DNA of 64,000 nucleotides from an uncultured delta proteobacterium (lineage in GTDB: Bacteria > Myxococcota_A > Polyangia > Polyangiales > Polyangiaceae): NCBI GenBank assembly GCA_963827955.1, contig CAWHDJ010000018.1, positions 1,181,297 to 1,245,296 on the forward strand. The letters are read 5' to 3'. How positions within the stretch are numbered: position 1 is the first letter of the stretch; every line of letters begins with the position of its first letter. The notes under the pieces are model-generated. The model was given only the letters and a program-made list of their open reading frames with translations, did no database searches and was not told the origin of the DNA. The translations under genes were made by a program, and so were the position numbers. Positions 3,308 to 33,434 of this stretch are shown one piece after another.

Positions 3308-4035
3308 GGGCTCTTGTCTCCGTTAGCGTTGCGGAGCTCGGTCTCGAGGTCGGATAGTCCCTCGGGGGAGCCGATCTCGAAGAAGCGGCGGGTGGCCACG
3401 TGCGCGCGCAAACGGCCCCGGGCGGCGAGGTCGTGCTGCACGGCCGAGAGGTCGTGCGCCTCGCCGGGCGGGAGGGCGGCGACGACCTCGCGCCGGAGCG
3501 CGGTGGCGCCGTAGTCGATCGCGTCGAGCGACGGATCGGGCGGCGCGCCCTTCGGGCGCTTCTCGTAGCGGGCGACGAGCTCGCCCTCCACGCGGGTGTT
3601 GCTGCGATCGAAGCGATCGTCGTTCTTGAAGACCGCCATGGTGCCGAGCGCCTCCGGGTGCGCGCGGAGGTCGCGGAGCGGCGCCATGTAGTCGAAGGGC
3701 AGGTACGAGTCGCCGTACGTGACGAGGAACGTGGGCGCGAGGAGCGGCGAGGCCTTGCGAAGCGCGCCCGCGGTGCCGAGCAGGCGCTCGCCGTCCTCCA
3801 CGTAGGCGAGCGAGATCCCGAACGCGCTCCCGTCGCCGAGGCTCCGCCGCACCTCGTCGCCGAGGTGCCCGATGCAGAGCACGGCCTCCTCGAACCCCGC
3901 TGCGGCGAGCCGTTCGAGGAGCCACGCGGCGAAGGGGCGGCCGGCGACGGGCAGCAGGAGCTTGGGGATCCGCTCGGTGCGCGGGAGCATCCGCGTGCCG
4001 AGACCCCCTGCGAGGATGACGACTTGGTCAGCCAT
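3304..4035 (-). CDS. sugar-phosphate nucleotidyltransferase (HddC/mannose-1-P guanylyltransferase-like)
   Basis: It starts at the internal M (MADQVVILAGGLGTRMLP..) with the classic nucleotidyltransferase G-x-G-T-R motif, and LLGTAGAL, YGDS. ATGA overlaps the GHMP kinase start. Confidence 0.65.
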   Translation of the reverse strand: MADQVVILAGGLGTRMLPRTERIPKLLLPVAGRPFAAWLLERLAAAGFEEAVLCIGHLGDEVRRSLGDGSAFGISLAYVEDGERLLGTAGALRKASPLLAPTFLVTYGDSYLPFDYMAPLRDLRAHPEALGTMAVFKNDDRFDRSNTRVEGELVARYEKRPKGAPPDPSLDAIDYGATALRREVVAALPPGEAHDLSAVQHDLAARGRLRAHVATRRFFEIGSPEGLSDLETELRNANGDKSP

Positions 4036-4975
4036 TGGGCGGGAAGACTTCCGCCGCCAGCGCGGCCACCGCGCGCCCCACCGCCTCGTCGCTGGAGAAG
4101 CGGACGCGGAACCCGAGCGCCGCGAGCTTGGCCGGATCCATGCGCGAGCGCGGCACGTCGCCCGGCCATCCACGGTCGCCGCCGGTGTAGCGGATGACCG
4201 CGTCCTTGTACGGCGAATGCGCCACGCAGAGCTCGGCGATGCGCGCCACGCTGGTCGCGTCGAGGGGCGCGAGGTTGTGGATGTTGAGCCGCTCCTTCGC
4301 GTGGTCGAGGCCGAAGAGCATGCCCTGTACGCAGTCCGTGACGAAGAGGTAGGGCTTCGACTGCTTGCCGTCGCCGAGCACCTCGAGCTCCGTCTTCTTG
4401 TCGCGGAGCTTCCTGAGGAAATCGAGCGCCGCGCCGTGCGTGCCCCGCGGGCCGACGACGTTGCCGAAGCGGTAGATGTACGCCGTGAGGCCGAAGCACT
4501 CGACGAAGGCGGAGACCATCGCCTCGCCCGCGAACTTGCTCGCGCCGTAGAGCGAGATGGGGAGGCAGCCGAGGTCGCCCTCGGCGCACGTGGCCGGCGT
4601 CTCGCCGTACACCGTTCCCGACGACGAGAAGACGAGCTTCGGCACGCCGCCGAGGCGCATCGCCTCGAGCACGTTGTACGTCGCGATGGTGCCCTGCTCC
4701 AGGTCGAGCCGCGTACGCGCGAGGCCCCAGCGCGCCTCGGGGTTGGCGGCGAGGTGGAAGACGACGTCGTGCCCCGCCACGGCGGCGGTGAGGCGCTCGA
4801 GATCGAGCATGTCGGCCTCGATCAGCGTGGCGCGCCCGGACGCGAGGTGACCCTCGATCCACGCGCGCTTGCCGACCGAGAGGTTGTCGTAGACCGTGAC
4901 GGGCCCGCGCGGGGCGAGCGCGTCCACCATGTGGCTGCCGATGAAGCCGGCGCCCCCGACGACGAACGATTGCAT
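4028..4975 (-). CDS. NAD-dependent epimerase/dehydratase (extended SDR)
   Basis: It starts at the internal M (MQSFVVGGAGFIGSHMVDAL, Rossmann GxxGxxG) and has YGASK (the catalytic YxxxK). There is an 8-bp overlap with the downstream gene. Confidence 0.7.
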   Translation of the reverse strand: MQSFVVGGAGFIGSHMVDALAPRGPVTVYDNLSVGKRAWIEGHLASGRATLIEADMLDLERLTAAVAGHDVVFHLAANPEARWGLARTRLDLEQGTIATYNVLEAMRLGGVPKLVFSSSGTVYGETPATCAEGDLGCLPISLYGASKFAGEAMVSAFVECFGLTAYIYRFGNVVGPRGTHGAALDFLRKLRDKKTELEVLGDGKQSKPYLFVTDCVQGMLFGLDHAKERLNIHNLAPLDATSVARIAELCVAHSPYKDAVIRYTGGDRGWPGDVPRSRMDPAKLAALGFRVRFSSDEAVGRAVAALAAEVFPPNG

Positions 4976-4977
4976 GC

Positions 4978-5640
4978 TCAGGTTCTCCCGGGGAGGACGA
5001 CGCCGGGCTGGGCGCCGGCGAGGCGGTCCGCCCGCTCGATGCGGGCGGCGAACTGGACCTCGTCCCGCGTGATCCAGCGGAACGGGATGTCGTGGATCCG
5101 GAGCGGCCAGTCGAGGCCGGTGAAGCGGCCGCCCGCCGTCGAGACCAGCTCCGCCCACTCGCGCGCGTCGAAGTACGTCCCGCGCACGGCGACGCCGGGC
5201 CCTGCGTTGCCCACGACATCCATCGCCAGCAGGATCTTCTCGGACAGCCAGCCGAAGCGGAAGTGATCCTTGATGGCGACGACCTTGCTCGCGACGCGCA
5301 GCGCGTCGCGGAGCACGGCGCCCGGGTCCGTGCAGTGGTGGAGCACGTCCGAGATCACCACCGCCTCGAAGGCGTCGTCGGGGAAGGGGAGGTGCAGCCC
5401 GTCGTACGCCACGACCTCGACGGCGACCGAGGGGCGGACCTTGATGTCGACCCCGGCCACGCGATCGGCGCCGACGCGGGCGGCGATGGTCTTCGCCACG
5501 GTCCCGTCCCCGCAGCCGACGTCGAGCAGCGAGCGGGCACTGCCGATTTGCGCGGCGAGCGCCCGCGCCACGCGCTCGACGCGGGGGACGTGGACGCGGT
5601 GGTGGTGCGCCGAGAAGAAGGCGCGCTTGAAGAGGTCCAT
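4978..5640 (-). CDS. class I SAM-dependent methyltransferase
   Basis: It has LLDVGCGDGTVAK (SAM-binding motif I) and VVISDVLHH (motif II-like). It starts at the internal M (MDLFKRAFF..). Confidence 0.65.
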   Translation of the reverse strand: MDLFKRAFFSAHHHRVHVPRVERVARALAAQIGSARSLLDVGCGDGTVAKTIAARVGADRVAGVDIKVRPSVAVEVVAYDGLHLPFPDDAFEAVVISDVLHHCTDPGAVLRDALRVASKVVAIKDHFRFGWLSEKILLAMDVVGNAGPGVAVRGTYFDAREWAELVSTAGGRFTGLDWPLRIHDIPFRWITRDEVQFAARIERADRLAGAQPGVVLPGRT

Positions 5641-5715
5641 GGGCGCCCCCGTTCTAGTGCAGGGCACGCCGGATGCGAGCAACTTTCCGAGCCCGTTCCC
5701 GTTCCCGCTCCCGTT

Positions 5716-5742
5716 CCCGTTCCCGGACGAGTCGGGAACGGG
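5716..5742. repeat. hairpin (10-bp stem CCCGTTCCCG / CGGGAACGGG) embedded in a GTTCCC hexamer tandem repeat (5692-5726)
   Basis: This is a direct reading of the intergenic sequence between the patatin stop (5765) and the methyltransferase start (5640). There is no U-tract after the stem, so it is not a classical intrinsic terminator. Confidence 0.4.
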
Positions 5743-5764
5743 ATGGGGCTCGGGAAGAGAGGCC

Positions 5765-6673
5765 TCAGTTCAGGCTCACGTCCGTGCTCTGCGACCCCCC
5801 GAACACCCCTCGCTCCTTCGCCTGGGCCAGCACCCGGAGCGCCGTCCTGTACCCCCGCAACACCAGCGGGCGGGCGGCGAAGCGGTTCAGGTAGCCGTAG
5901 TGGCCGATGTCGGGGGCGATGTCGAGGAAGGTGACGTGGGGGTAGAGCTTGGAGAGCAGCTCGACGCCGCGCCGCTCCTTCTCGGTGAGCAGGATGTTGA
6001 GGGCCTGGCGCACCACGGCGTGGGCGCCGCGGCGGGCGATGTTGGAGTCGGTGGGGAGGACGCTCCTCCGGGCGGTAGATGTTCGAGATGATTACGACCG
6101 TGGCGCCCGCGGCGACGGCGATGTCGGCCGAGAGGGTGCGCGCGACCTCCCCGTCGAGGAAGTAGCGGCCGCCGATGCGGTACGGCCGGAAGAGGCCGGG
6201 CACGCAGCAGCTCGCCGCCACGGCCTGGCTGATGGGCACGCGCTCCTCGTACCCCGGGCCGAAGACGACGCGCTGGCCGTTGTCGACGTCGACGGCCGTC
6301 ACGAAGATCCGGTTCGGGAGCGCGCGGAAGTCGTTGATGGGCAGGTAGCCTGCGAGGTACCGCTCGAGCTTGTCGAGCGAGAACATGCCCGAGAGCACGT
6401 AGCCGGGGTCGAGCAGGTCGCGCAGGCGCGGCGCGCCCATGAACTTGTTGAGGTGCAGGCGCGGGCCCTGGTGGCGGCGCCGCCAGGGCAGCCGGTAGCC
6501 GTCGAGGAGCACGTCGAGCGGGATGTTCTGCCCGTAGGTGGCGCTCACGATGGCCCCGGCGCTCGCCCCGACGAAGACCTCCGGCTCGATGCCCAGCTCC
6601 TCGCAGGCCTTCAGCACGCCGAGGTGGGAGAGGCCGCGGGCGGCACCGCCGGATCCGATGAAGGCAATCTTGG
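5765..6673 (-). CDS. patatin-like phospholipase, frameshifted near 6050
   Basis: MPRTKIAFIGSGGAARGLSHLG (oxyanion GGxR), VGASAGA (GxSxG nucleophile) and FLDGEVA (catalytic DG[AG]). The C-terminal 83 aa are in another frame (ORF 5765..6016, MVRQALNILLTEKE..). Confidence 0.65.
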
Positions 6674-6752
6674 TTCGGGGCATGCAAACGTAGTTTCGCC
6701 GACCCGTCGAGGAGGGGCAAGAACGCGGCCATGCGTGTGCTACAGGTGAGCG

Positions 6753-7313
6753 GTGCCCCACCTCCTTCGCGTCGTGTTCCCCGCCCTGACCCTCTCGCTC
6801 GCGGCCCTCGGCTGCCAGGCCAACCCGCAGGAGGGCATGATCCGCCCCGAGGCCTCCGTTCACGCTCCGGCGGCCCCTCCGGCTCGCCCGGCCGGCGGCA
6901 CCCACCCCGGCGCCACGGGGGAGTCGTGGAACGCCCAGCAGATCGACTGGCAGGGGTACGAGGCGGGCCTGGCGAAGGCGAAGGCGGAGAAGAAGCCCGT
7001 CGTCCTGGTGTTCTACACGAACTGGTGCCCCCACTGCCGGAACTACAGCCACGTCTTCGACGACCCGACGGTGGTCGCGCAGAGCAAGAAGTTCGTGATG
7101 GTCCGCGCCAACGCCGACGAGGAGGCGGATCTCGCCAACCGATACAGGCAGGATGGCGGCTACGTGCCCCGCACCTTCTTCCTGAAGCCGGACGGCACCC
7201 TCGACCCCGACATCCACGTCCCCCGGCCCAAGTTCCTCTACTTCTTCGACGAGAAGGACCCGCGCTCGCTGCTCGGGGGGATGGACGAGGCGCTGCGCAA
7301 GCTCGCGGGGTGA
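6753..7313 (+). CDS. thioredoxin-fold lipoprotein (WCPHC active site)
   Basis: GTG start. The signal/lipobox is LSLAALGC. VLVFYTNWCPHCRNY has the CxxC motif. The gene is divergent from the patatin gene. Confidence 0.7.
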   Translation: MPHLLRVVFPALTLSLAALGCQANPQEGMIRPEASVHAPAAPPARPAGGTHPGATGESWNAQQIDWQGYEAGLAKAKAEKKPVVLVFYTNWCPHCRNYSHVFDDPTVVAQSKKFVMVRANADEEADLANRYRQDGGYVPRTFFLKPDGTLDPDIHVPRPKFLYFFDEKDPRSLLGGMDEALRKLAG

Positions 7314-7374
7314 GCGGCGCGCAATCCGCGTGCCAAGAGACTCGTCGTTCGGGTCGAGCCGCTCGTCGTTCGAG

Positions 7375-7935
7375 CCGAGCGGATGGGCAAGCGTGCCGCG
7401 CGGATGGGTGAGCGTGCCGCGCGGATGGGCAAGCGTGCCGCGCGGATGGGCAAGCGAGCCGCGCGGATGGGAAAGCGTGCCGCGCGGATGGGCAAGCGAG
7501 CCGCGCGGATGGGCAAGCGAGCCGCGCGGATGGGCAAGCATGCCGCGCGGATGGGTAAAGCGAGCCGCGCGGATGGGCAAGCGTGCCGCGCGGATGGGCA
7601 AGCGAGCCGCGCGGATGGGCAAGCGTGCCGCGCGGATGGGCGGGTCGAGCCGCGCGGATGGGCAAGCGTGCCGCGCGGATGGGCGGGTGAGCCGTGCGGA
7701 TGGGCAAGCGTGCCGCGCGGATGGGCAAGCGAGCCGCGCGGATGGGCGGGTGAGCCGCGCGGAGGGGCAAGCGAGCCGTGCGGATGGGCAAGCGAGCCGC
7801 GCGGATGGGCGGGTGAGCCGCGCGGATGGGCAAGCGAGCCGCGCGGATGGGCAAGCGTGCCGCGCGGATGGGTGAGCGAGCCGCGCGGATGGGCAAGCGA
7901 GCCGCGCGGATGGGCAAGCGAGCCGCGCGGATGCG
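7375..7935. repeat. 21-bp tandem repeat array, about 27 copies (unit GCGCGGATGGGCAAGCG[A/T]GCC), intergenic
   Basis: It is directly visible in the sequence. Units are 20-22 bp with variants (gggtgagcg, gggcgggtgagcc), so no frame is conserved throughout. It lies between the thioredoxin stop and the next + strand gene. Confidence 0.85.
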
Positions 7936-7970
7936 ACCTCGCAGTTGTGATACACGAAGGCGTGGCGGGC

Positions 7971-8756
7971 GTGGTTGAGGGTGCGAGCAGCAGGTGGCTC
8001 CTCCTGGTTCGACGCGTCGCCGCCAGCGCGCTCGCCGCGGCCGCGTTCACGCTCCCGTCGGCGCGCGCCGAGGCGTACCGCCCCTTCGACGGCACCGACG
8101 CGGACACGGCGGAGCCCAGAGAATTCGAGCTCGAGCTCGGCCCCGTCAACTACTACCGCCAGGGGGATCAGATCTTCCTCATCACGCCCGGCATGGTCCT
8201 GAACTACGGCCTCGGCGCGAGGACCGAGCTGGTCTTCGACGCGAGTGTGTACGTGGGGGTCCACAAGCCGACCCCCGGGGCGCCGCGCGTGGCCCTGCGT
8301 GGGGACGACCTGCTCTTGAAGCACGTGTTCCGCGAAGGGATCCTTCAAGGGAAGACGGGCGTCAGCATCGCGGCGGAGGGAGGCGTGCTCACCCCCGAGA
8401 GCAGCGGGGGAGTCGTCGGCCTCGGCGCGTCGCTCGATGTCATCCTCTCGTACCAGTGGTCGTGGGGCACCATCCACTGGAACGAGTGGTTCCAGTACAC
8501 GCGCGACCACCACGCGGACCTCTACACCGGAGCCATCCTCGAAGGGCCTCACGACTGGAAGGTGCGACCCGTCGCCGAGCTCTACTACGAGAAGGATTTC
8601 GCGGCCGACCGAACCGGGTCCGTCCTCGTCGGCGCGATCTGGACCGTCAGCGAGTCGATCGCGATCGACGCCGGCTTTCGCGGCGCGCGGTCGGGCTCGG
8701 CGTACGTCACCGAGGCGAGGCTCGGGCTCACGTGGTCCATCCCGACCGAGGGCTGA
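7971..8756 (+). CDS. secreted protein, putative outer-membrane beta-barrel (MetA-pathway/phenol-degradation-like family?)
   Basis: The signal peptide (VRRVAASALAAAAFTLPSARA|EA) follows an in-frame GTG after the repeat array. Alternating hydrophobic beta-strand patterning is seen (LGLTWSI, VLVGAIWTV). The start is uncertain: GTG 7947, 7962 or 7971. Confidence 0.45.
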   Translation: MVEGASSRWLLLVRRVAASALAAAAFTLPSARAEAYRPFDGTDADTAEPREFELELGPVNYYRQGDQIFLITPGMVLNYGLGARTELVFDASVYVGVHKPTPGAPRVALRGDDLLLKHVFREGILQGKTGVSIAAEGGVLTPESSGGVVGLGASLDVILSYQWSWGTIHWNEWFQYTRDHHADLYTGAILEGPHDWKVRPVAELYYEKDFAADRTGSVLVGAIWTVSESIAIDAGFRGARSGSAYVTEARLGLTWSIPTEG

Positions 8757-8817: not shown

Positions 8818-10216
8818 ATGAGCGACCCCGACGCGCCCTTCCAGCGTGAAGAGTCCCTCGACAAGCCGGGCATCGTCGGCGCCCGCTGGTGGCAGCGCAG
8901 CCTGGAGGCGCCGCCGGACATGATGTCGCGCCGGCAGGCGGTGCAGGGCATGCTCGTCGCCGGCGGGGTCGTGGCGGGGCTCGGCGTGATGCTCGCCGTC
9001 GCGGGCGCGGCGTCGCACGCGTCGAGCGCTTCGAGCGCTTCGAGCGACTACCGGACGGAGACGCGCCCCTCGCTGGAGGCGCAGAAGAGCTTCGGGTGGA
9101 GCTTCGGCGCGCCCGGCGAGGCGCTGACCTTCGACGGCCGGTCGAAGCAGCCCTTCGACCGCGACGCCCTCGGGCGGATGGTGGACGACCTCCGCCCCGC
9201 GCGCCGCGAGCACGCGCCCTGGTACGTGCCCACGCTCTTCCAGGCCATCGGCGCCCAGCCGCGTGAGCGCGCGGTCGAGGAGACGACGCCCACGGTCCCG
9301 CTCGCGCAGGTCCTCCAGCCCATCTCCACGGCGGCGATGGACCTGGCCTATCGCCGCGGCAAGGCGCTCGCCTCGTTGTTCCAGGGCAAGGACGCGGCCG
9401 TCATGGTCGTCGTCGACCTGCCGGGGCCCGAGGCCGTCGCCTTCGCGGCCGGCGCCGCGGCCGTCTTCGATCCCGTCTTCGCCTTCGACAACTGGCCCCA
9501 CCCGCGCGGCGTCGTCCCTGCGCACCAGACCCTCGCCGCGGCGGCGTACTACCAGCCCCTCTTCGCCAAGCGTAGCGCCCCCGCCGGCGCGCCCGCGCTC
9601 GTCGCCCTCGATCGCCGGAGGCTCGCCTCCTATGCCGACGACGCGACGCAGTTCGACAACCGCCACGTCGCCCGCGTGCCCGGCGCCGCTGCGCTGAAAG
9701 CGCTCGGGATCAAGCGGGTGCTCTACGTCGCGCCGAGCGGGACGGACCGGGAGCTCGACGATCTCAACGACGATCCGGTCGCCTACATGCTGGCCGGGAT
9801 TGAGGTGCGGCTGGTCGGCGCGGACGCCTTCGGCCCCGAATCCGAGCGACGCGGGCAACACCGACGCGCCCTTCTACTACGGATCGAGCGCCCACACCCA
9901 CCTCGGGTTCTGGCTCGCCTACCGCTGGATCGAGCCCCCCCACTCCGCCCATCCGAGCGCGCCGGTCACGATGGGGGGAGACCCCCCATACCCCCCGGCC
10001 CAGCCGGTCCCACCCATGGCGGGCGCCGCATACGCCTTCGCGCCGCGCGCCTCGCCGTTCTCCAGCGGCTCCCTCACGGGATCGGCGGAGAGGCCGAGGC
10101 CGCCGGGCTTTGCCACCGTGCCGGTGATCGTCTCGGTCGCCACCGGCCTCGTCCTCGGCGCCAAGCTGTTCCGGAGCGGGTCGTGGAACCGCGCGTCGGG
10201 CTACTCCGGAGGGTAG
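8818..10216 (+). CDS. hypothetical protein with a Tat-like signal (SRRQAVQGMLVAGGVVAGLGV), frameshifted near 9838
   Basis: It starts at the internal M of ORF 8437..10434 (MSDPDAPFQ..). The real-looking C-terminus (NPSDAGNTDAPFYYGSSAHTHLGFWLAYRWIEPP...TVPVIVSVATGLVLGAKLF) lies in the frame of ORF 9800..10216. Confidence 0.4.
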
Positions 10217-14639: not shown

Positions 14640-15524
14640 ATGATCGAAAGGCCCATGCCCACGCGCAAGCCCGTCAGGCAGCAACTCTTCGTGCTCGTGC
14701 CCGCGGTCGCGGGGATCGCCCTCTCCCTCGGGAGCGGCTGCGGCGGCGGCAGCCCGTCGTACCCGCTCTCGGATGGAGGGCTCGGGGCCTCGAGCACGTC
14801 GAGCTCCTCGCACGCCACGTCGAGCTTTTCCGGCGCCGGCGGCACCAGCTCGTCCAGCACGAGCGCATCGAGCACGAGCGCGTCGAGCACGAGCACGTCG
14901 AGCACGAGCGCATCGAGCACGAGCACGTCGAGCACGAGCACGAGTAACACGAGCGCGAGCACGAGCGCGAGCACGAGCACGAGCACGAGCACGTCGAGCG
15001 CGAGCAGCAGCGGGGAGGCGTGCACCGCCAACGGAGAGGCCTGCGTCGTGTTCTCCGACTGCTGCTCCCAGCAGTGCAACGCCGGCTTCTGCGGGCCGAT
15101 CGGCTGTTTCGCGAACGGTCAGGCCTGCTCCAGCGACAACGAGTGCTGCTCCATCAACTGCACCGACGGCATGTGCGCGAAGGGAGCGAGCTGCCTCGCG
15201 AACGGCTTCTCGTGCACGCTGGCGTCCGAGTGCTGCTCGACCGAGTGCAACGGCGGCAAGTGCGGTCCGGCGGGGTCGTGCAACGGCAACGGGATGGCGT
15301 GCTCGGACGACAGCCAGTGCTGCTCGAGCACGTGCGCCGGCGGCCAGTGCGCTCCGCAATCCTGCGCGCCGCCCGGGGGGAGCTGCAAGTCGGCGAGCGA
15401 TTGCTGCGGTGGTCTCAGCCAGTGCACCAAGGGCACGTGCACGAGCTGCAAGACGCTCGGGCAGCCATGCGCCGGGGCCGCGGACTGCTGCTCGGGTACG
15501 TGCAGCGGCGGGACCTGCGAGTGA
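14640..15524 (+). CDS. lipoprotein with S/T-rich linker and six cysteine-rich (C-x4-5-C-x4-DCCS-x2-C-x3-4-C) knottin-like repeats
   Basis: The signal is VLVPAVAGIALSLGSGC. The (STS)n linker is followed by CTANGEACVVFSDCCSQQCNAGFCG repeated 6 times. Confidence 0.6.
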   Translation: MIERPMPTRKPVRQQLFVLVPAVAGIALSLGSGCGGGSPSYPLSDGGLGASSTSSSSHATSSFSGAGGTSSSSTSASSTSASSTSTSSTSASSTSTSSTSTSNTSASTSASTSTSTSTSSASSSGEACTANGEACVVFSDCCSQQCNAGFCGPIGCFANGQACSSDNECCSINCTDGMCAKGASCLANGFSCTLASECCSTECNGGKCGPAGSCNGNGMACSDDSQCCSSTCAGGQCAPQSCAPPGGSCKSASDCCGGLSQCTKGTCTSCKTLGQPCAGAADCCSGTCSGGTCE

Positions 15525-21514: not shown

Positions 21515-22003
21515 TCATGGCTTGGGCCATTCGACGTTCCAGAGGTCGAGGGCTCCGGCGAACGTTCGGAAGTCTTCGGCCATGGTCACCCAGCGATTCT
21601 GCTGCCGCGTCGCGCCCCAAAGCAGCCGGACAATGCGCGGGGGCGTGCATCGGTAGTCGAGCAAGATGGGGGCATCGGAGCCGAGGCCAAAGTCTCCGAT
21701 GAGCAGGGAGAGGTTGATGTCGATGCCCGATGGGCTCATGAACGGCTCGTTCCAGAATTCGCGCTCGGTGCCCGTTGCCCTCTCAGCAACCAGACGCGGA
21801 GGATGACAGAAGAGGTAGATGCGTGATTCCTCGGGCGCGAGGAGCTGGACGCGCGCGGCAGATATCAGCGGCGGCTCTCCGTTCTGCGCCAGCTCCTGCT
21901 GGTTGGTCCTTGGCCATCGCCCCGCGACGACGAGCGCCATGTACTCTTGCGGAAGCGGTAATCCTGCAATCAGCATCCGTCCCTCGTCTGCCCAACGTAC
22001 CAT
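21515..22003 (-). CDS. SUKH-1 (SMI1/KNR4) family immunity-like protein
   Basis: Starting at the internal M (MVRWADEGRMLIAGLPLPQEYMALVVAGRWP), it matches the SMI1/KNR4 LP..Y..FL motif. C-terminal LIGDFGLGSDAPILLDYR...VTMAEDFRTFAGAL matches the family's conserved C-terminal block. Codon usage is atypical (GTA, GCA, GGA, TTA, ATT) and local GC is about 60%. The ORF stays open upstream through the 21-bp repeat to M at 22288. Confidence 0.5.
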   Translation of the reverse strand: MVRWADEGRMLIAGLPLPQEYMALVVAGRWPRTNQQELAQNGEPPLISAARVQLLAPEESRIYLFCHPPRLVAERATGTEREFWNEPFMSPSGIDINLSLLIGDFGLGSDAPILLDYRCTPPRIVRLLWGATRQQNRWVTMAEDFRTFAGALDLWNVEWPKP

Positions 22004-22320
22004 TCCGATCCCCACACACGCCTCGGCGATCCCCGCGTACGCCTCGGCGAACCCCACGTACGCCTCGGCGATCCACGCATACGCCTCGGCGATCCACGCA
22101 TACGCCTCGGCGATCCCCACATACGCTTCGGCGATCCCCACGTACGCCTTGGCGATCCACGCGTACGCCTCGGCGATCCCCACATACGCCTCGTCGATCC
22201 CCACGTACGCCTCGGCGAACCACGCGTACGCCTCGTCGATCCACACGTACGCCTCGTCGATCCCCACGTACGCCTCGGCGATCCACACGTACGCCTCGGC
22301 GATCCACGCCCGAGCTTGCG
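22003..22320. repeat. 21-bp tandem repeat array, about 15 copies (unit CGCCTCGGCGATCC[C/A]CRCGTA), in frame with the SUKH gene and encoding (EAYVGIA)n heptads on the - strand
   Basis: Direct reading. It is a different unit from the 7375-7935 array but the same 21-bp period. Confidence 0.85.
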
Positions 22321-22373: not shown

Positions 22374-22436
22374 GCCCTGTCTCCGTTTGGGCCATGCCTG
22401 TCTCCGTTTGGGCCCTGCCTGTCTCCGTTTGGGCCC
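22374..22436. repeat. 3 x 21-bp tandem repeat (CTGTCTCCGTTTGGGCCMTGC)
   Basis: Direct reading. It lies 200-260 bp upstream of the 22634 gene. Confidence 0.8.
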
Positions 22437-22633
22437 TGCGACCCCTGGGCTGCGCCTCGACCAGGCGCTCGGGCCCCCTCAGGATCCTTCCCAACCTTGC
22501 GAAACCACGATTTATTTTGGACCCACAGGCCACGGCGCGTCCGGCTCGCGGCGGGCAGGCACGGCGCTTGCGATGAGGGCTCGTCGACGCGGCAATCGGG
22601 CCGCGGATCACCCATCACAGAAAGGAGGGCCCC

Positions 22634-23281
22634 ATGGCTACCGTGAATCGGACCCGGGCCATTTTGAAGATCGACAGACGCAGCACCCCCAGCGTGACGG
22701 GGAGGGCGAAGGCCGCGCGCGACGGGCTCGCGAGCGACACGACGAAGTTCGGCGCGTCCAACCCGAGCTCCGCCGCCATCGACGCCCAGATCACCGTCGT
22801 CGACAAGGCCGAGGACCAGGCGCGCAAGAGGGTCCCTGGCGCCGCTGCGGCGCGCAACGTCCAGCGATCGCTCCTCGTGGGCATGCTGGAGAAGGTGCTC
22901 ACGTTCGTGCAGGGGATCGCCGACACGAGCGCGACGCGCGAGGACGCCGTGGCCACGATCCTGGCGGCAGGATTGCTGGTCGCGACGCCCCCGCAGGCGC
23001 GGAAGCAGATCCTCGCGGCCAAGCAGGGTCCGCAGTCGGGCTGCGTGCTGCTGGCCGCCTTCGCGAAGCTGCTCGGCGCCGCGGGGAGCGCGAAGAGCTG
23101 CTTCAACTGGCAGCAAACCAGTGACGGCAAGACCTTCGTCAACCAGCCGTCGACGCCGAAGGCGAAGACCATGGTCACCGGCCTCACGCCGGGCCAGAGC
23201 TACGGCTTCCGCGTGAGCGTCACCCGCTCGGACGGCACCACCGGCGAGTGGACGCAGGTCGTCACCATCATCGCTCACTGA
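22634..23281 (+). CDS. hypothetical protein with C-terminal fibronectin type III-like domain
   Basis: A strong RBS (AAAGGAGG) sits 6 bp before the ATG. The C-terminus KTMVTGLTPGQSYGFRVSVTRSDGTTGEW fits the FN3 consensus (LxPxTxYxFRV). Confidence 0.5.
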   Translation: MATVNRTRAILKIDRRSTPSVTGRAKAARDGLASDTTKFGASNPSSAAIDAQITVVDKAEDQARKRVPGAAAARNVQRSLLVGMLEKVLTFVQGIADTSATREDAVATILAAGLLVATPPQARKQILAAKQGPQSGCVLLAAFAKLLGAAGSAKSCFNWQQTSDGKTFVNQPSTPKAKTMVTGLTPGQSYGFRVSVTRSDGTTGEWTQVVTIIAH

Positions 23282-28356: not shown

Positions 28357-28941
28357 TCAGACGCAGAGCGTCGATAGCCAGTAATCCGCTCCGTCGCTGA
28401 GGTGGGCGACCTGGAGCGGGAGGCGCCCCTTCGTCGTCGCATAGGCCATCCTTCCGGGCCTCGGGCCGGACTTGGACACCGCGTGGTGACTGAAGACGAT
28501 CCCGCGGTACTCGACGCGAGGTTTTCCAAGGTCCGCGTGATGACCCACCATTGCGAGGAAGTAATCGGCGAGGAGCCTCGCGTTCTCGAGCTGGTCGATG
28601 GCGCCCTCCAGTTTCCCCGATTTGAGCTCGCACAGGAGCACGTAGAGCACGGGGTCATCCTCCCCCTGCTCGCAGAATATCCAGTAATCGCACATGCGCG
28701 CGACGCCTTCGATCTCGCGGAATAGCGGGAACAGCCGGTCCTTGACGCAGATCGGCTGACCCCTCGGGCCGAAGGAGATCTTCGCGTTGAAGGAGACCAC
28801 CACGCACTTGCCCGATTGGTGGATCCTCACGGGCTTGCACGTGCTGCCTTCGTCCTCCTCGCGCAGCTCGTTGTCCGTCACCACGAGGCCATGGCGGAGC
28901 ACCTCGTCGACGGCCTGGAGCCAGCGGGAGCCCTTACCCAT
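28357..28941 (-). CDS. hypothetical protein, partner of the AAA_21 ATPase (possible effector; acidic cluster CEQGEDD)
   Basis: It is 194 aa and its start overlaps the ATPase stop by 8 bp. GC is about 62%, against about 72% in the flanks. No HNH motif is seen. Confidence 0.45.
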   Translation of the reverse strand: MGKGSRWLQAVDEVLRHGLVVTDNELREEDEGSTCKPVRIHQSGKCVVVSFNAKISFGPRGQPICVKDRLFPLFREIEGVARMCDYWIFCEQGEDDPVLYVLLCELKSGKLEGAIDQLENARLLADYFLAMVGHHADLGKPRVEYRGIVFSHHAVSKSGPRPGRMAYATTKGRLPLQVAHLSDGADYWLSTLCV

Positions 28942-30280
28942 TGAGGGCCACGTAGATCTGCTGGGACACCGCGTTCAACTTGTTGATCTCCTCCTCGATG
29001 GTACGCGCCTCGAACCCTTCCTCGGTCACGGGCACGTTCTCGGCCGTGCCGCCCTGGAACAGGTACACGCCGAGCTTGGACGGGCTCAGCAGCTCGGCGT
29101 CGGCGTAGCCGAGCTCGGCGCGCAGATCCTTGATGGGCTGCGTGTCGCGAGAGAGGAGGACGAGGTTGTTCAGCTCGCGCAGGATGTAGTCGCTGTGCGT
29201 GCTCATGATCATGCGCAGGCCCCGGTTCACCGCCTTGGCGAGCACGCGAGCCACCTTCCGCTGATTATCCGGGTGGAGGTTCAGCTCGGGCTCGTCGATC
29301 ATGAGGAGGTCGCCCTTCCTGGCGATGTGGCGGAGAAAGAAGACGAGCCGCACGAGCGATTTGACGATGGAGGAGGAGAGGTGGATGCCGAGCGTCGCTG
29401 GCGCACCTTCCGGCTTGAATCCAACCTCGCCTTCTTTGGACAAATAGACGGCGCCGCCGAGGAGCGTCTCGAGCTCGACGGCCAGATCGGCGAACTCACC
29501 CTTCCCTTTTGCGAGGCGAACGAGATCATTCGCCATGCGAAGACTATCCTGTATCGGCCACGGATAGCGTCCGACATCGCGTGTGAGCGACATGGGCTCC
29601 GGTTGTGCATCGATTTTCGCCTCGACGATCCTGTCCACGAGCTCCATGCGGCGGGTAGAAAGCTCTTTCGCGAACATATCCACATCGACGCGCTCCGTGG
29701 GCAGGATCGCGCAATATGGCCAGCATGTCTTCATCACGATCGTGCCCAGTTCATCTCCAATTCCATCGGCCAGCACGTCCATCAGAGCGGACGGGATCTG
29801 AGTGAAAGGAACAGATTTGGGGGAATCGCGGTGAAAGGCATACGCAACCAGTGCGCGCCCTTGGATGTAAATGCGGACCTGATATTCTCCAGAATACGCA
29901 TATCCGATCGGGCTCACCATGCCCCAGCTTGGCTCGTTCGCTCCAGCGCGCAGCACGACTCGGACGTCTGCAAAATACTGCCGCTCGGCGGCGAAACACA
30001 GGTGTAGGCGGCTCGCGAGCTGGTCGGCCGCCTCTGCGAGGATGCGGGGCCACAGTGCGGCGATGCGCTCGATGGGGATCGCTTGCTGCGGCGACGCCAG
30101 CATCTCGCCCGCGAGCTCGTGGAATACCTTGGGCGCGCTGGGCGACCGGAAGAGCCCGTATACGCTCCACGCCACGTACGTCTTCCCCGTGCCGTTCGGC
30201 CCGGTCAGCAGGATCATCTCCTTCGAGAGATCGACCTCCGCCTCGCGCAGCGGGCCCAGGTTTTCGACGCGGAAGAACAT
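28934..30280 (-). CDS. AAA_21/AAA_15 ABC-type ATPase (OLD/AbiL/PARIS/Septu-like ATPase component)
   Basis: It starts at MFFRVENLGPL. It has Walker A LTGPNGTGKTY, Walker B LLMIDEPELNLHP and H-loop IMSTHSDY, and is low-GC relative to the surroundings. Confidence 0.65.
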   Translation of the reverse strand: MFFRVENLGPLREAEVDLSKEMILLTGPNGTGKTYVAWSVYGLFRSPSAPKVFHELAGEMLASPQQAIPIERIAALWPRILAEAADQLASRLHLCFAAERQYFADVRVVLRAGANEPSWGMVSPIGYAYSGEYQVRIYIQGRALVAYAFHRDSPKSVPFTQIPSALMDVLADGIGDELGTIVMKTCWPYCAILPTERVDVDMFAKELSTRRMELVDRIVEAKIDAQPEPMSLTRDVGRYPWPIQDSLRMANDLVRLAKGKGEFADLAVELETLLGGAVYLSKEGEVGFKPEGAPATLGIHLSSSIVKSLVRLVFFLRHIARKGDLLMIDEPELNLHPDNQRKVARVLAKAVNRGLRMIMSTHSDYILRELNNLVLLSRDTQPIKDLRAELGYADAELLSPSKLGVYLFQGGTAENVPVTEEGFEARTIEEEINKLNAVSQQIYVALNG

Positions 30281-30397
30281 CGCCCGGGCACCATACCCGC
30301 GGCGCCCCAGGCCCGGCAAGCCGCCGGCCGACCAGCCCCGACGCAGACGCCCGTCCCGGGCGCCGCGCCGTCATGCGAGCGCGTTTGCGTGACGGTC

Positions 30398-30460
30398 GGC
30401 GTCTCTCGCGATGGCGCGAGCGCCTCTCGCGATGACGCGAGCACCTCCCGCGATGGCGCG
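30398..30460. promoter_or_regulatory. 3 x 21-bp tandem palindromic repeats (CTCTCGCGATGGCGCGAGCGC; core TCGCG-N4-CGCGA) in the divergent ATPase/MVP intergenic region
   Basis: Direct reading. Each unit contains a perfect 5-4-5 inverted repeat, which is operator-like. It sits 120-180 bp upstream of the ATPase start and about 110 bp upstream of the MVP start. Confidence 0.45.
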
Positions 30461-30566
30461 AGCGCTTCTCGGGTAACGCGCTCGCGCTGACGCGTTGCGT
30501 TGCCAGGCCCATCCGACGAGCACGCGCGTCCCGCTCCTGGTGCCCATTCCGGTGTAGCCTTCCCCC

Positions 30567-33434
30567 GTGACAGAGCGCACGAGCCGCAAGATCCCCGTCA
30601 CCGAACGCCAGTTCCTCTGGGTCCAGGACGACGACAAGGGCGAGGTCACCCTCCACGTCGGCCCCACGATGGTCTCGCCCACCGCGGCGGACCGCGTTGT
30701 CGTCGACGACGGTGAGGGCGGGTTCCGGGAGGACCTCTCGGGCCGGCCCCAGCAGATGGTGGAGCTCAGCGACAGCCAGTACGCGGTGCTCTTCAACCCG
30801 CTGGGGGAGAACGACGGGGGCCCGAACGGGAAGTTCCGCGCCGGCCGCAACGAGTCGCGCCCGGTGCGCAACGGCACGCGGGCGATGATCCCCGGCCCGT
30901 GCAGCTTCTACCTGCGCCCCGGGCAGCGGATCGACGTGCGCGACGCGCACGAGCTGGCGTCGAACCAGTACCTCGTCGTCAAGGTGTACGGCGAGGTCGA
31001 CACCACCGCGCCCTTCTTCCAGGTCACGGCGCGATCCGCCACCATCACCCGCGCCACGGCCGAGAGCCCCATCGCCCCCGGCAGCACCTCGCCCGACGGC
31101 GACGCGCGCGACGTCGTGCTCAAGCGCGGCCAGCTCATCGTCATCCGCGGCCTCGACACCCAGTTCTACATCCCGCCGACCGGCGTCGACATCGTGCCCG
31201 ACACCTCCGTCGACGACTCCGGCGCGGGCCTCAACGCCGCCGCCGCCCAGCGCCTCCTCGCCGCCCTCGCGCCCCCGCCTCCGCCTCCGCAGGCCGATCC
31301 GGCGGCCGTGGGCGGCGCCTTCGGCGCGCCCGCGATGAAGGCCGAGGCCGCCTACGACGAAGAGCGCGCCGAGGAGCCCGAGCAGCAGCAGACCCGCGCC
31401 CCGCGCCGCGCCGCCCCCGTCGTCGACCAGACCGCGCGCTCCCGCCAGCGCGTCATGCCTGCCGCCGCCGCAGCGCCCCCCGGCTTCGGTCCTCCTTCAC
31501 CTCCGCCGGCGCCGGCGCCCCAGCCGTTCCCGCCCCCGCAGACGCTCTCCGAGCTGGGATTGCTCGCCGCCGTGCGCCGCGCCCTGGAGCGCGAGGCCCG
31601 CCAGGCCCGCCTCGTGCGCCAGGCCGTCGTGCTCGGCGAGAAGGAGTACTGCGTCATCGTCGACGCCGACGGCAAGCGCGAGATCAAGGTCGGCCCGGCC
31701 CGCGTCTTCCCCGGCCCCTACGACGTCTTCATGGTCGAGGGCTCGAAGAACCGCGTCTACGACGCGTACGAGCTGCTCCCCCAGCGCGCCCTCTGGCTCC
31801 GCGTCATCGCCCCCATCTCGCGCGACGACCTCGCCGCCCGCCTCCCGCGCGGCTTCGCCCTCGACAAGGACCAGTACTACCCCGGCGACGAGCTGCTCCT
31901 CACGGGCGTCTCCACCTTCTTCGTCCCGTTCAACGAGATCGAGGTCCTCTCCCCGCAGACGGGCGAGGCCGTCGTCGGCAACGATCACCGCACCGTCTTC
32001 ATCGAGGCCATCGGCATCGACCAGAAGAGCGGCATCTACGTCCGCGATCTGGCCACCGGGGAGGTGCGGCTCGTCCGCGGCAAGCAGAGCTACCTCGTCG
32101 ATCCGCGCAAGGAGGTGCAGATCACCCGCACCGTCTCCGCGACGGACTGGAACCTGTGGATTGCCGGCAACGAGCCGCACAAGCGCACGGGCGCGCCCAT
32201 CACGACGCCGTGGGCCCTCTCCATCGTCGTGCCCCACAACATGGCCGCCCTCGCGACGTCGGCCGACGGCCAGCGCGTCATCCTCGGCCCGTGCGTGACC
32301 TTGCTCGGGTACGAGGAGACGCTGACCTCCATCCTGCTCTCGACGGGCACCCCCAAGTCGGATCAGGACCCGCTCCGCACCTCTTTCCTCCGCGTCGGCG
32401 GCAACCGGATCAGCGACGCGATCACCGTCGAGACGCTCGACTTCGTCGCCATCAGCGCCAAGGTCTCGCTCTCCGTCACCTTCCTCCAGGAGCAGAAGGA
32501 TCGCTGGTTTTACCACGAGAACTACGTGCAGGTCCTCGTCGACCACCTCCGGTCCATCGTCCGGAGCCGCTGCCGGACGCTGCCGCTGTCCACGCTCTGG
32601 CCGCAGATCCCCGCCGTCGTGCGCGACACGATCCTCGGCGAGAAGAGCGCGGCCGGCGGGCGCCCGGGGCGCGCGTTCCCGGAGAACGGGATGGTCGTGA
32701 CGGAGGTGGAGGTGCTCTCCGCCAACATCGTTGACAAGTCGATCGCCGCGCAGATGCAGCGGGTGCAGTCGGAGTTCGTGACGCTCCAGATCGGAGACCG
32801 CCAGGCGCAGGAGGCCCTCGCCTCCGCGCGCCTCCGCGCCGACATCAAGCGCCAGCACCAGGAGCTGGAGCAGGAGGCGCGGGAGCGGGAGGCGAGGCTC
32901 GAGGAGCAAGCGCGGCGGACGGCGCACGAGGTGAGCGTGGCGCGGGTGAAGGACGAGGAGTCGCTGCGGCGCGAGCAGCAGGCGCTCGGCGACGCGCGCG
33001 AGGCGGCGGCGCTCGCGGCGCGGCTCGGGCGGCAGGCGGACGAGCGCGACGCCGAGCGGGCCAACCTGGAGAAGTCGGCGGCCGCGCAGGCGGCGGCGAG
33101 GCGCGTGGTGGACGCGGCCGACGTGGAGAACCGGCGGGCGCTGCGCGATCTGGAGGTGCTGCTGATCCAGGCAGAGAGCGCGGCGACGGTGGCCGAGCGG
33201 CAGGCCGTGCAGGCGGGGCTCGTCGAGGCGCTCACGGCGCTCGGCGACAAGGCGCTGCTCGGCGAGGTCGCGCAGAACATGAACCTCGTCACCCTCTTCA
33301 AGGGCAAGGACGTGGGCACCATCCTCGCCGAGGTGCTCGGCGGCACGCCGGCGATGCCCGCCGTGCAGGCCCTGCGCGCGAAGTTCGCCTCGGCGCTCAC
33401 GACCGGCAGCACCCAGCCCGACGACGCCGGCTGA
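30567..33434 (+). CDS. major vault protein (MVP) homologue
   Basis: The 955-aa ORF is intact. From my recollection of the human MVP sequence, it shares blocks in the N-terminal repeats, the shoulder region and a coiled-coil cap-helix region at the C-terminus, for example: HVGPTMV / [31 protein letters not shown] / [46 protein letters not shown] / [30 protein letters not shown]...[27 protein letters not shown] / RVPHNAAV...[41 protein letters not shown] / VFPQNGLVVSSVDV. GC and codon usage look native. Confidence 0.8.
   Translation: [955 protein letters not shown]

Follow-up and report, generated by a model that had tools for sequence, protein, structure and literature searches.

A long non-coding array of 21-bp repeats upstream of a predicted outer-membrane barrel gene in an uncultured Polyangiaceae bacterium: a candidate lineage-specific minisatellite

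We analyzed a 64-kb stretch of DNA (hereafter the window) from contig CAWHDJ010000018.1 of an uncultured delta proteobacterium of the Polyangiaceae, and focused on a tandem array of about 27 copies of a 21-bp unit that lies in an intergenic region at 7375-7933. A first-pass annotation, made from the letters alone, had placed this array between a thioredoxin lipoprotein gene and a putative outer-membrane barrel gene. Tandem Repeats Finder, splitting of the array by hand and comparison with shuffled sequences all recovered it there, and its neighbors are as described, a thioredoxin-like putative lipoprotein upstream and a predicted outer-membrane barrel downstream. The array is non-coding, and its unit sequence is, as far as visible, private to this locus, which is known from one contig only. 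We lean towards reading the array as a lineage-specific minisatellite without a dedicated sequence-specific function.

Tandem Repeats Finder reported 26.7 copies with a period of 21 bp and 88% matches over 7371-7933 (score 884), by far the highest-scoring tandem array of the window. Split by hand, the array consists of 26 complete units (7375-7922) and an 11-bp partial unit (7923-7933) on the plus strand, with the consensus CCGCGCGGATGGGCAAGCG[A/T]G; the 21-mer of the first-pass annotation is this consensus rotated by two bases. At three or fewer mismatches the unit matched 24 times, always within 7375-7922, compared with a mean of 0.04 matches in shuffled sequences, none of 100 of which reached 24. 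No further copy was found in the window outside the array at this threshold. Eight units, the most common form, are identical to one another. Positions 1-13 of the unit are nearly invariant and positions 14-20 hold most of the changes, dividing the unit into a half of 13 constant base pairs and a half of eight variable ones; the constant half contains an 8-bp palindrome, CCGCGCGG. The variants are arranged partly in a higher-order pattern of 63 bp, or three units (self-match of 0.94 at a lag of 63 bp over 7601-7851). The plus strand of the array is G-rich (G over C skew of +0.21 to +0.32), and its guanine-plus-cytosine (GC) content is 0.74-0.76 throughout. Two copies of a related 21-bp unit, CTCGTCGTTCGRGYCGAGCSG, at 7341-7380 on the plus strand (Tandem Repeats Finder: period 21, 1.9 copies, 89% matches), abut and overlap the start of the main array; this unit has 13 of 21 bases in common with the main unit (p ~0.05). 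The whole repeat cluster, 7341-7933, thus takes up 593 bp of a 657-bp intergenic gap.

We call the array non-coding, as the first-pass annotation had done, because of three observations: (i) its codon-position GC is flat in every frame (0.71/0.86/0.71 for the consensus unit and 0.75-0.77 for the whole array), compared with 0.67-0.69/0.46-0.50/0.91-0.95 in the neighboring genes; (ii) homologues of the barrel protein begin 3' of the array, with 26 of the 26 aligned homologues starting at the signal peptide, which lies downstream of the array together with a GAAGG Shine-Dalgarno site, and longer database entries of the family have no heptad repeats; and (iii) no protein resembling the plus-strand translations of the array was found in a collection of 5.8 billion clusters. 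The opposite reading, in which the array encodes a heptad repeat on either strand, as an N-terminal extension of the barrel or as a separate repeat protein, with the 22-bp units as sequencing errors, is scarcely credible in our view. It can draw on the six of six reading frames that are open across the array, on the fact that 21 bp makes seven codons and on the indel errors that exist in the assembly. Besides the three observations above, it has to contend with a repeat of 190 residues that would precede the signal peptide, and with the example of another array in the window.

That array, at 22006-22305, has 14.3 copies of an unrelated 21-bp unit, CGATCCCCACGTACGCCTCGG, also with a 63-bp higher-order period. 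The source annotation translates it as an (EAYVGIA)n N-terminal extension (P0121, 257 residues; open reading frame 21515-22288, minus strand), and its codon-position GC is coding-like (0.64/0.45/0.94). We nevertheless rejected it as coding sequence, because homologues of the adjacent gene are 140-153 residues long, start at MLIAGL and lack the repeat. The adjacent gene, which encodes about 153 residues, truly starts at 21976 (minus strand), with the end of the array 29 nt upstream, and the 104-residue extension in P0121 is fake.

The first-pass annotation had based its non-coding call on units of 20 or 22 bp that break the reading frame. Two 22-bp units are present, unit 9 at 7543-7564 (GGGTAAAGCGAG) and unit 13 at 7628-7649 (GGGCGGGTCGAG), so the array does contain two breaks; hand splitting of all units gave none of 20 bp. 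By itself the frame-break argument is weak, because apparent single-base frameshifts occur in real genes of this assembly and the 22-bp units could be sequencing indels. An array at a related locus (L060, described below) argues that such units can be real, as one and the same 22-bp variant occurs in it exactly twice and is its only form of that length. Apparent single-base frameshifts split a patatin-like gene (~5765-6683, minus strand), a gene for an unknown membrane protein (8818-10216, plus strand) and, at another related locus (L144, ~9893-10000), an orthologue of the barrel gene, which suggests indel errors typical of a long-read-only assembly.

We next consider the distribution of the array. 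A 19-mer of the unit, searched in one genome each of 185,579 species, gave 58 single chance matches in scattered phyla and no array, and a 17-mer matched viral contigs five times, singly and by chance in each case, again with no array. The region upstream of the barrel gene differs between orthologues. No array precedes the gene in L145, whose protein is 85% identical to that of the window, and there the start codon overlaps the stop codon of a cytochrome c-type gene. L141, L142 and L143 (63-64% identity) have the same operon layout; in several genomes, translation of the barrel gene is coupled to that of a preceding multihaem cytochrome c gene. L146 and L152 (both about 70%) and L144 (about 73%) also have no array at this place. 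Two loci differ: L060 (70%) has 27.7 copies of an unrelated, C-rich 21-bp unit, CGTCGAGCCCGACCGACCGAG, at 5379-5962, and in L059 (72%) the gene is preceded by 1.15 kb of non-coding sequence that includes decayed repeats of 20 bp. The barrel gene is detached from its cytochrome c partner both in the window and in L060. We also note a candidate tRNA-like sequence (containing GGTTCGAGTCCCTCCTCGTGCA) at ~830-925 of L152, directly 5' of the barrel orthologue P0005.

In a neighbor-joining tree, the array-free P0002 is sister to the window protein and the array-free P0005 is sister to the L060 protein; P0046 is a further array-free sister orthologue. Because array-free orthologues stand as sisters to both proteins, the arrays of the window and of L060 appear to be young and independent in origin, with the window array younger than the split from the 85%-identical relative. 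None of 80 more distant metagenome loci, mostly 43-65% identical, has an array upstream, which is weak evidence since these are short-read assemblies that may break at arrays.

The reading that we favor would account for the array as follows. A 21-bp seed from local intergenic sequence would have been amplified in place to about 27 copies, likely by slipped-strand mispairing or by unequal recombination between units, and blocks of one to three units would have been re-duplicated, leaving the unit variants in higher-order patterns. The 63-bp period and the repeated pattern of variants support such growth by block duplication. We infer this mode of amplification, an unstable copy number and, as set out below, transcription through the array. 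A hotspot for copy-number variation, as the first-pass annotation proposed, is plausible, and it has indirect support in the lack of an array at the 85%-identical L145 locus and in the higher-order duplications. Hairpins between the 8-bp palindromes of different units form in silico with a stability no greater than composition predicts; slippage driven by such hairpins is possible and is not separable from an effect of base composition. The array also seems to be part of a local propensity, as three more intergenic 21-bp arrays with unrelated units are found in the window and others in L060, L144 and L059.

In form, the array corresponds to the intergenic variable-number tandem repeat (VNTR), or minisatellite, loci of bacteria, such as those used for multiple-locus VNTR analysis (MLVA) in Mycobacterium, Yersinia and Coxiella. 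Like them, it is made of spacer-free, head-to-tail, non-coding units in the range of 10-100 bp (here 26.7 x 21 bp with 88% matches), has a unit of its own at its locus and differs in presence between close relatives; VNTR loci grow and shrink by slippage or recombination. It differs from them in three respects: about 27 copies and 560 bp are at the long end for such loci, the copy-number polymorphism that defines a VNTR is here a prediction for a locus known from one assembly, and several of the arrays here share a 20-21-bp period with unrelated sequences.

The genes on either side bear on how the array could affect expression. Upstream lies the Thioredoxin_7-like putative lipoprotein gene (6753-7313, plus strand; E 2.7e-16), with a lipobox-like LAALGC and a codon-position GC of 0.69/0.46/0.95, and its stop codon is 27 nt before the repeat cluster. 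Downstream, the gene at 7971-8756 (plus strand) encodes a predicted secreted outer-membrane beta-barrel of 261 residues, identical to P0001, with a signal peptide and the mature N-terminus AYRPFDGTDA. The protein has no Pfam, NCBIfam or PDB sequence match; its AlphaFold model (predicted local distance difference test score of 74) shows a beta-barrel, for which porins, OmpG, FapF and a COG4313 channel were matches. Its family is large and unannotated, with at least 784 homologues, and the named relatives are Polyangiaceae.

Between the array and the barrel gene there is a unique spacer of 37 nt (7934-7970, plus strand), in which the Shine-Dalgarno-like GAAGG (7956-7960) lies 10 nt before the GTG start codon at 7971. 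The spacer is too short for a full promoter plus leader. Because only these 37 nt are left before the start codon, the barrel gene would be transcribed through or from the array, which must be part of its transcription unit or promoter region. A scan of 7200-8100 for sigma-70-like promoters and for terminators found neither; -10/-35 candidates picked by hand close to the array edges were weak, did not agree from locus to locus and were dropped. Under the minisatellite reading, transcription of the barrel gene may continue from the thioredoxin gene through the array, which would then form a G-rich leader; alternatively, it may start within or at the edge of the array. In both cases, an effect on expression would most likely be a by-product of array length and not a dedicated sequence-specific function.

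The same facts invite the thought that the transcribed array is itself a functional RNA. It could be the long, G-rich, repetitive leader of the barrel mRNA, or a separate repeat RNA with its own function, for example as a sponge for proteins or in giving rise to R-loops. Given the 37 nt to the start codon and the lack of a terminator-like site after the thioredoxin gene, the array is likely to be transcribed through, and the strong excess of G over C on the sense strand favors R-loops. We consider such a role very unlikely. No Rfam family matches anywhere in the window, the folding of 7314-7975 is no better than that of shuffles on either strand (z -1.4 and -1.1), and the unit sequence is not conserved in the species genomes or viral contigs searched. 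By these measures the array does not look like a structured non-coding RNA. A G-quadruplex potential of the array was rejected by inspection, as its GGG runs are 21 nt apart.

Other arrays with a period of 20-21 bp are found in the window and in related loci. In addition to the one at 22006-22305, the window has three copies of the unit CCTGTCTCCGTTTGGGCCCTG at 22376-22439 and 3.5 copies of the unit GCGCCTCTCGCGATGGCGCGA at 30399-30471. The latter array lies in the divergent region between an AAA_15/AAA_21 ATPase gene (28934-30319, minus strand) and a gene for a vault-protein-like protein of 955 residues with major-vault-protein shoulder and repeat domains (30567-33434, plus strand). The L060 array, 584 bp long, lies 38 nt before the ATG of the barrel orthologue and 27 nt from the start of a divergent PD40-like gene, and its unit is also split into a near-invariant half and a variable half. 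L144 carries three adjacent 20-bp arrays (7, 17 and 3 copies) at 3644-4224, 581 bp in total, between convergent genes, with the first and third arrays being inverted copies of one another. Adjacent arrays at one locus are related, whereas the units of different loci are no more alike than shuffles and share no motif beyond chance; a GCTCGC hexamer common to three loci was a post hoc pick and was dropped. No shared termini or target-site duplications were seen at the flanks of the four large arrays, and the flanking inverted repeats of the main array are weak (71-83%). In about 909 kb of other loci we found no non-coding 20-21-bp arrays; this comparison is in part circular, as the grouping of L060, L144 and L059 was made once their arrays had been seen. 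Two further repeats of the window, at 14842-15006 (15 bp x 11.6) and 1874-1973 (18 bp x 5.6), have periods that are multiples of three and a coding-like composition, and are probably repeat peptides within genes. Our literature search found no described class of 21-bp arrays in myxobacteria.

These related loci also help to judge whether the array, or its copy number, is an artefact of assembly or sequencing, the source being probably an error-prone long-read metagenome assembly. The frameshifts in several genes of the window and of L144 fit this idea, as do related contig names in the style of a long-read assembler and the odd similarity of three clusters at ~580-590 bp. An artefact is nonetheless highly improbable: the units are locus-specific, with genome-like GC and ordered variants, unlike adapters or polishing noise; arrays occur in contigs from several samples, including the decayed one in L059; and 560 bp is well inside single long reads.

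Several findings weigh against a minisatellite without dedicated function, and we collect them here. The changes between units are uneven, in L060 as in the window, as would be expected for a constrained binding core with a free linker. An 8-bp palindrome is present in every unit, so that successive palindromes stand exactly two helical turns apart. The best match to a sigma-54 promoter in the window abuts the array. An unrelated array of 21 bp x 27.7 stands 38 nt 5' of the orthologue of the same gene in L060, an unlikely coincidence because, by a rough estimate, only 3-7% of intergenic regions carry arrays. The three large clusters are nearly equal in length (593, 584 and 581 bp), which is not obvious from a neutral process. 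Finally, the edges of the large arrays lie 27-38 nt from four start codons, which leaves no room for a promoter and leader, and these genes would therefore be transcribed from within or through the arrays.

Another reading is that of a protein-binding or enhancer array, in which a dimeric protein would occupy the CCGCGCGG cores along one face of the helix and the whole would serve as a sigma-54 upstream activating sequence, a multi-site operator or a decoy. We regard this as an unlikely but serious alternative. The constant half, with its palindrome, stands next to a variable half, and L060 shows the same split. The tandem half sites that myxobacterial enhancer-binding proteins recognize are 8 bp long and lie 80-150 bp upstream of sigma-54 promoters, and the half site of one of these proteins, Nla28, is CT(C/G)CG(C/G)AG (PMC7910581); CCGCGCGG matches it at 6 of 8 positions, with the two mismatches placed symmetrically. 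We scored the window against the sigma-54 consensus TGGCACG-N4-TTGCW (12 positions). The best score, 11/12, belongs to the -24/-12-like site TGGCACGCGGATTGCG (7320-7335, minus strand), which is separated from the repeat cluster by 5 bp and has the array upstream of it. The window offers another case in the small array at 22376-22439, followed by a 10/12 sigma-54-like match, AGGCACGGCGCTTGCG, at 22557-22572 (plus strand) that precedes an fn3/PKD-like gene at 22634. From 22376 to 22640 the three 21-bp repeats, an AT-rich tract (~22508-22520), AGGCACGGCGCTTGCG, AGGAGG and the ATG at 22634 follow one another in the canonical layout of an enhancer-dependent promoter. Of the eight sites with a score of 10/12 or more, two are found no farther than 200 bp from the end of an array and are directed away from it (rough post hoc probability of ~2e-3).

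Other findings speak against a binding array. The site at 7320-7335 is directed, in antisense, at the 3' end of the thioredoxin gene and towards a patatin operon (start 6683), and not at the barrel gene. It is an inverted, diverged copy of part of a unit and so is not independent of the array, and an equally good site arises by chance in 23% of simulated windows. No comparable site was found near the arrays of L060 or 30399-30471, and no gene for an enhancer-binding protein (GAFTGA-type) was found in the window or the related loci. Twenty-seven sites far exceed any described enhancer, and the 20-bp period in related genomes loses helical phase. We note separately that the direction of the 7320-7335 site, through the thioredoxin gene to the divergent patatin operon, makes an excludon-like layout, and that a weaker -24/-12-like site, TGGCCGCGTTCTTGC, lies at 6717-6731 on the minus strand, just 5' of the patatin gene.

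Set beside the Nla28-type sigma-54 enhancers (PMC7910581), the array is similar in its 8-bp palindromic core, its place upstream of a candidate -24/-12-type element and its myxobacterial-type genome, and the small array at 22376-22439 fits their layout well. It differs in that those enhancers have two or few sites at -80 to -150, compared with 27 contiguous units 5 bp from the -24 element, that the adjacent promoter-like site is antisense to a gene and that no activator gene was found nearby.

A broader form of this idea takes in the whole set of arrays. They could be selected cis-regulatory platforms of a high-GC, Polyangiaceae-like clade, that is, expanded enhancer or operator arrays that include promoters or act on them, with dependence on sigma-54 in some cases. 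Such platforms would share a 20-21-bp period, private units, core and linker halves, lengths of ~580-590 bp and edges 27-38 nt from starts, and would have originated repeatedly, including twice independently before the same barrel gene. We consider this rather improbable.

The twin array in L060 could also point to a contingency locus, in which gain or loss of units alters spacing or leader length and so produces reversible, heritable variation of a surface barrel, for example under pressure from phages or predators. The downstream product is a predicted outer-membrane barrel, and an independent array of the same period and nearly the same copy number precedes the L060 orthologue; the decayed repeats before the L059 orthologue and the detachment of the gene from the cytochrome c gene in the window and L060 are in keeping with this idea. 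We remain doubtful of it. A 21-bp unit keeps helical phase and makes a poor switch compared with the 1-7-bp tracts of phase-variable promoters, the sister orthologues P0002, P0005 and P0046 lack arrays, and other arrays adjoin unrelated genes, one of them in a convergent region without a gene start. Examples of phase-variable promoter tracts are the 7-bp repeats upstream of the Haemophilus influenzae hmw genes and the TAAA repeats upstream of Neisseria nadA. The present array resembles these in being a tandem tract directly upstream of a surface-protein gene, whose copy number could tune expression, but its unit is 21 bp long, whereas theirs are of 1-7 bp with documented variation.

Direct repeats of two helical turns also raise the question of replication and partition. 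Typical iterons are 17-22-bp direct repeats set at intervals of about two helical turns, and long tandem arrays such as sopC are plasmid centromeres. The array, with ~20-bp direct repeats in the same phase, is like iterons and like sopC or parC, which serve in those systems as multi-site platforms for proteins. We give hardly any weight to the reading of the array as the iterons of a replication origin or as a centromere-like partition site. There is no cognate Rep or Par gene: rep, dnaA, parA and parB-like genes are absent among the window genes examined, and no domain of an adjacent parA/parB or parM/parR pair was found in those scanned, nor were transposase or enhancer-binding-protein genes found nearby among them. 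The genes around the main array are those of a methyltransferase, a patatin, the thioredoxin and the barrel, besides unknown ones. There is no AT-rich unwinding region, with GC at the level given above across the whole array; the context is an ordinary chromosomal one, on a 1.78-Mb contig, and several unrelated arrays lie within 64 kb.

Two further kinds of repeat deserve comparison. The closest published analogue in form appears to be BrickBuilt of Porphyromonas gingivalis, a 23-nt minisatellite inside a transposable element of the miniature inverted-repeat type (MITE), which is present at 19 loci with one shared unit (PMC4596501). BrickBuilt is always intergenic, 49-591 nt from coding sequences, with reported bidirectional promoter activity, and has conserved leader and tail parts with inverted-repeat ends (PMC4596501). 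The arrays described here are likewise spacer-free, intergenic tandem repeats of about 20 nt at multiple loci per genome; they differ in having a private unit at each locus and flanks that share nothing. For the main array, we found no second locus of the unit, in the window or in the species genomes, and no conserved ends with inverted repeats, as a MITE-borne minisatellite would have. Clustered regularly interspaced short palindromic repeats (CRISPR) are also many, regularly spaced, short, partly palindromic and set in non-coding DNA, but they are separated by unique spacers, whereas the units of our array are contiguous. In sum, the features that define CRISPR, iterons, partition sites, MITE-borne minisatellites, coding repeats and structured RNAs are, as far as tested, missing from the array.

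Taken as a single locus, the array is an ordinary if unusually long bacterial minisatellite and would make a good marker for strain typing. Arrays of this kind are also a trap for gene callers, as the fake extension annotated at 22006-22305 illustrates. The wider pattern, with arrays that share a period, a twin before an orthologue of the same gene and sigma-54-type sites at array edges, would, if it holds true, suggest that promoters are recurrently built or tuned by the amplification of a short binding site. In that case, it would best be studied in these uncultured myxobacteria, whose sets of enhancer-binding proteins are very large.

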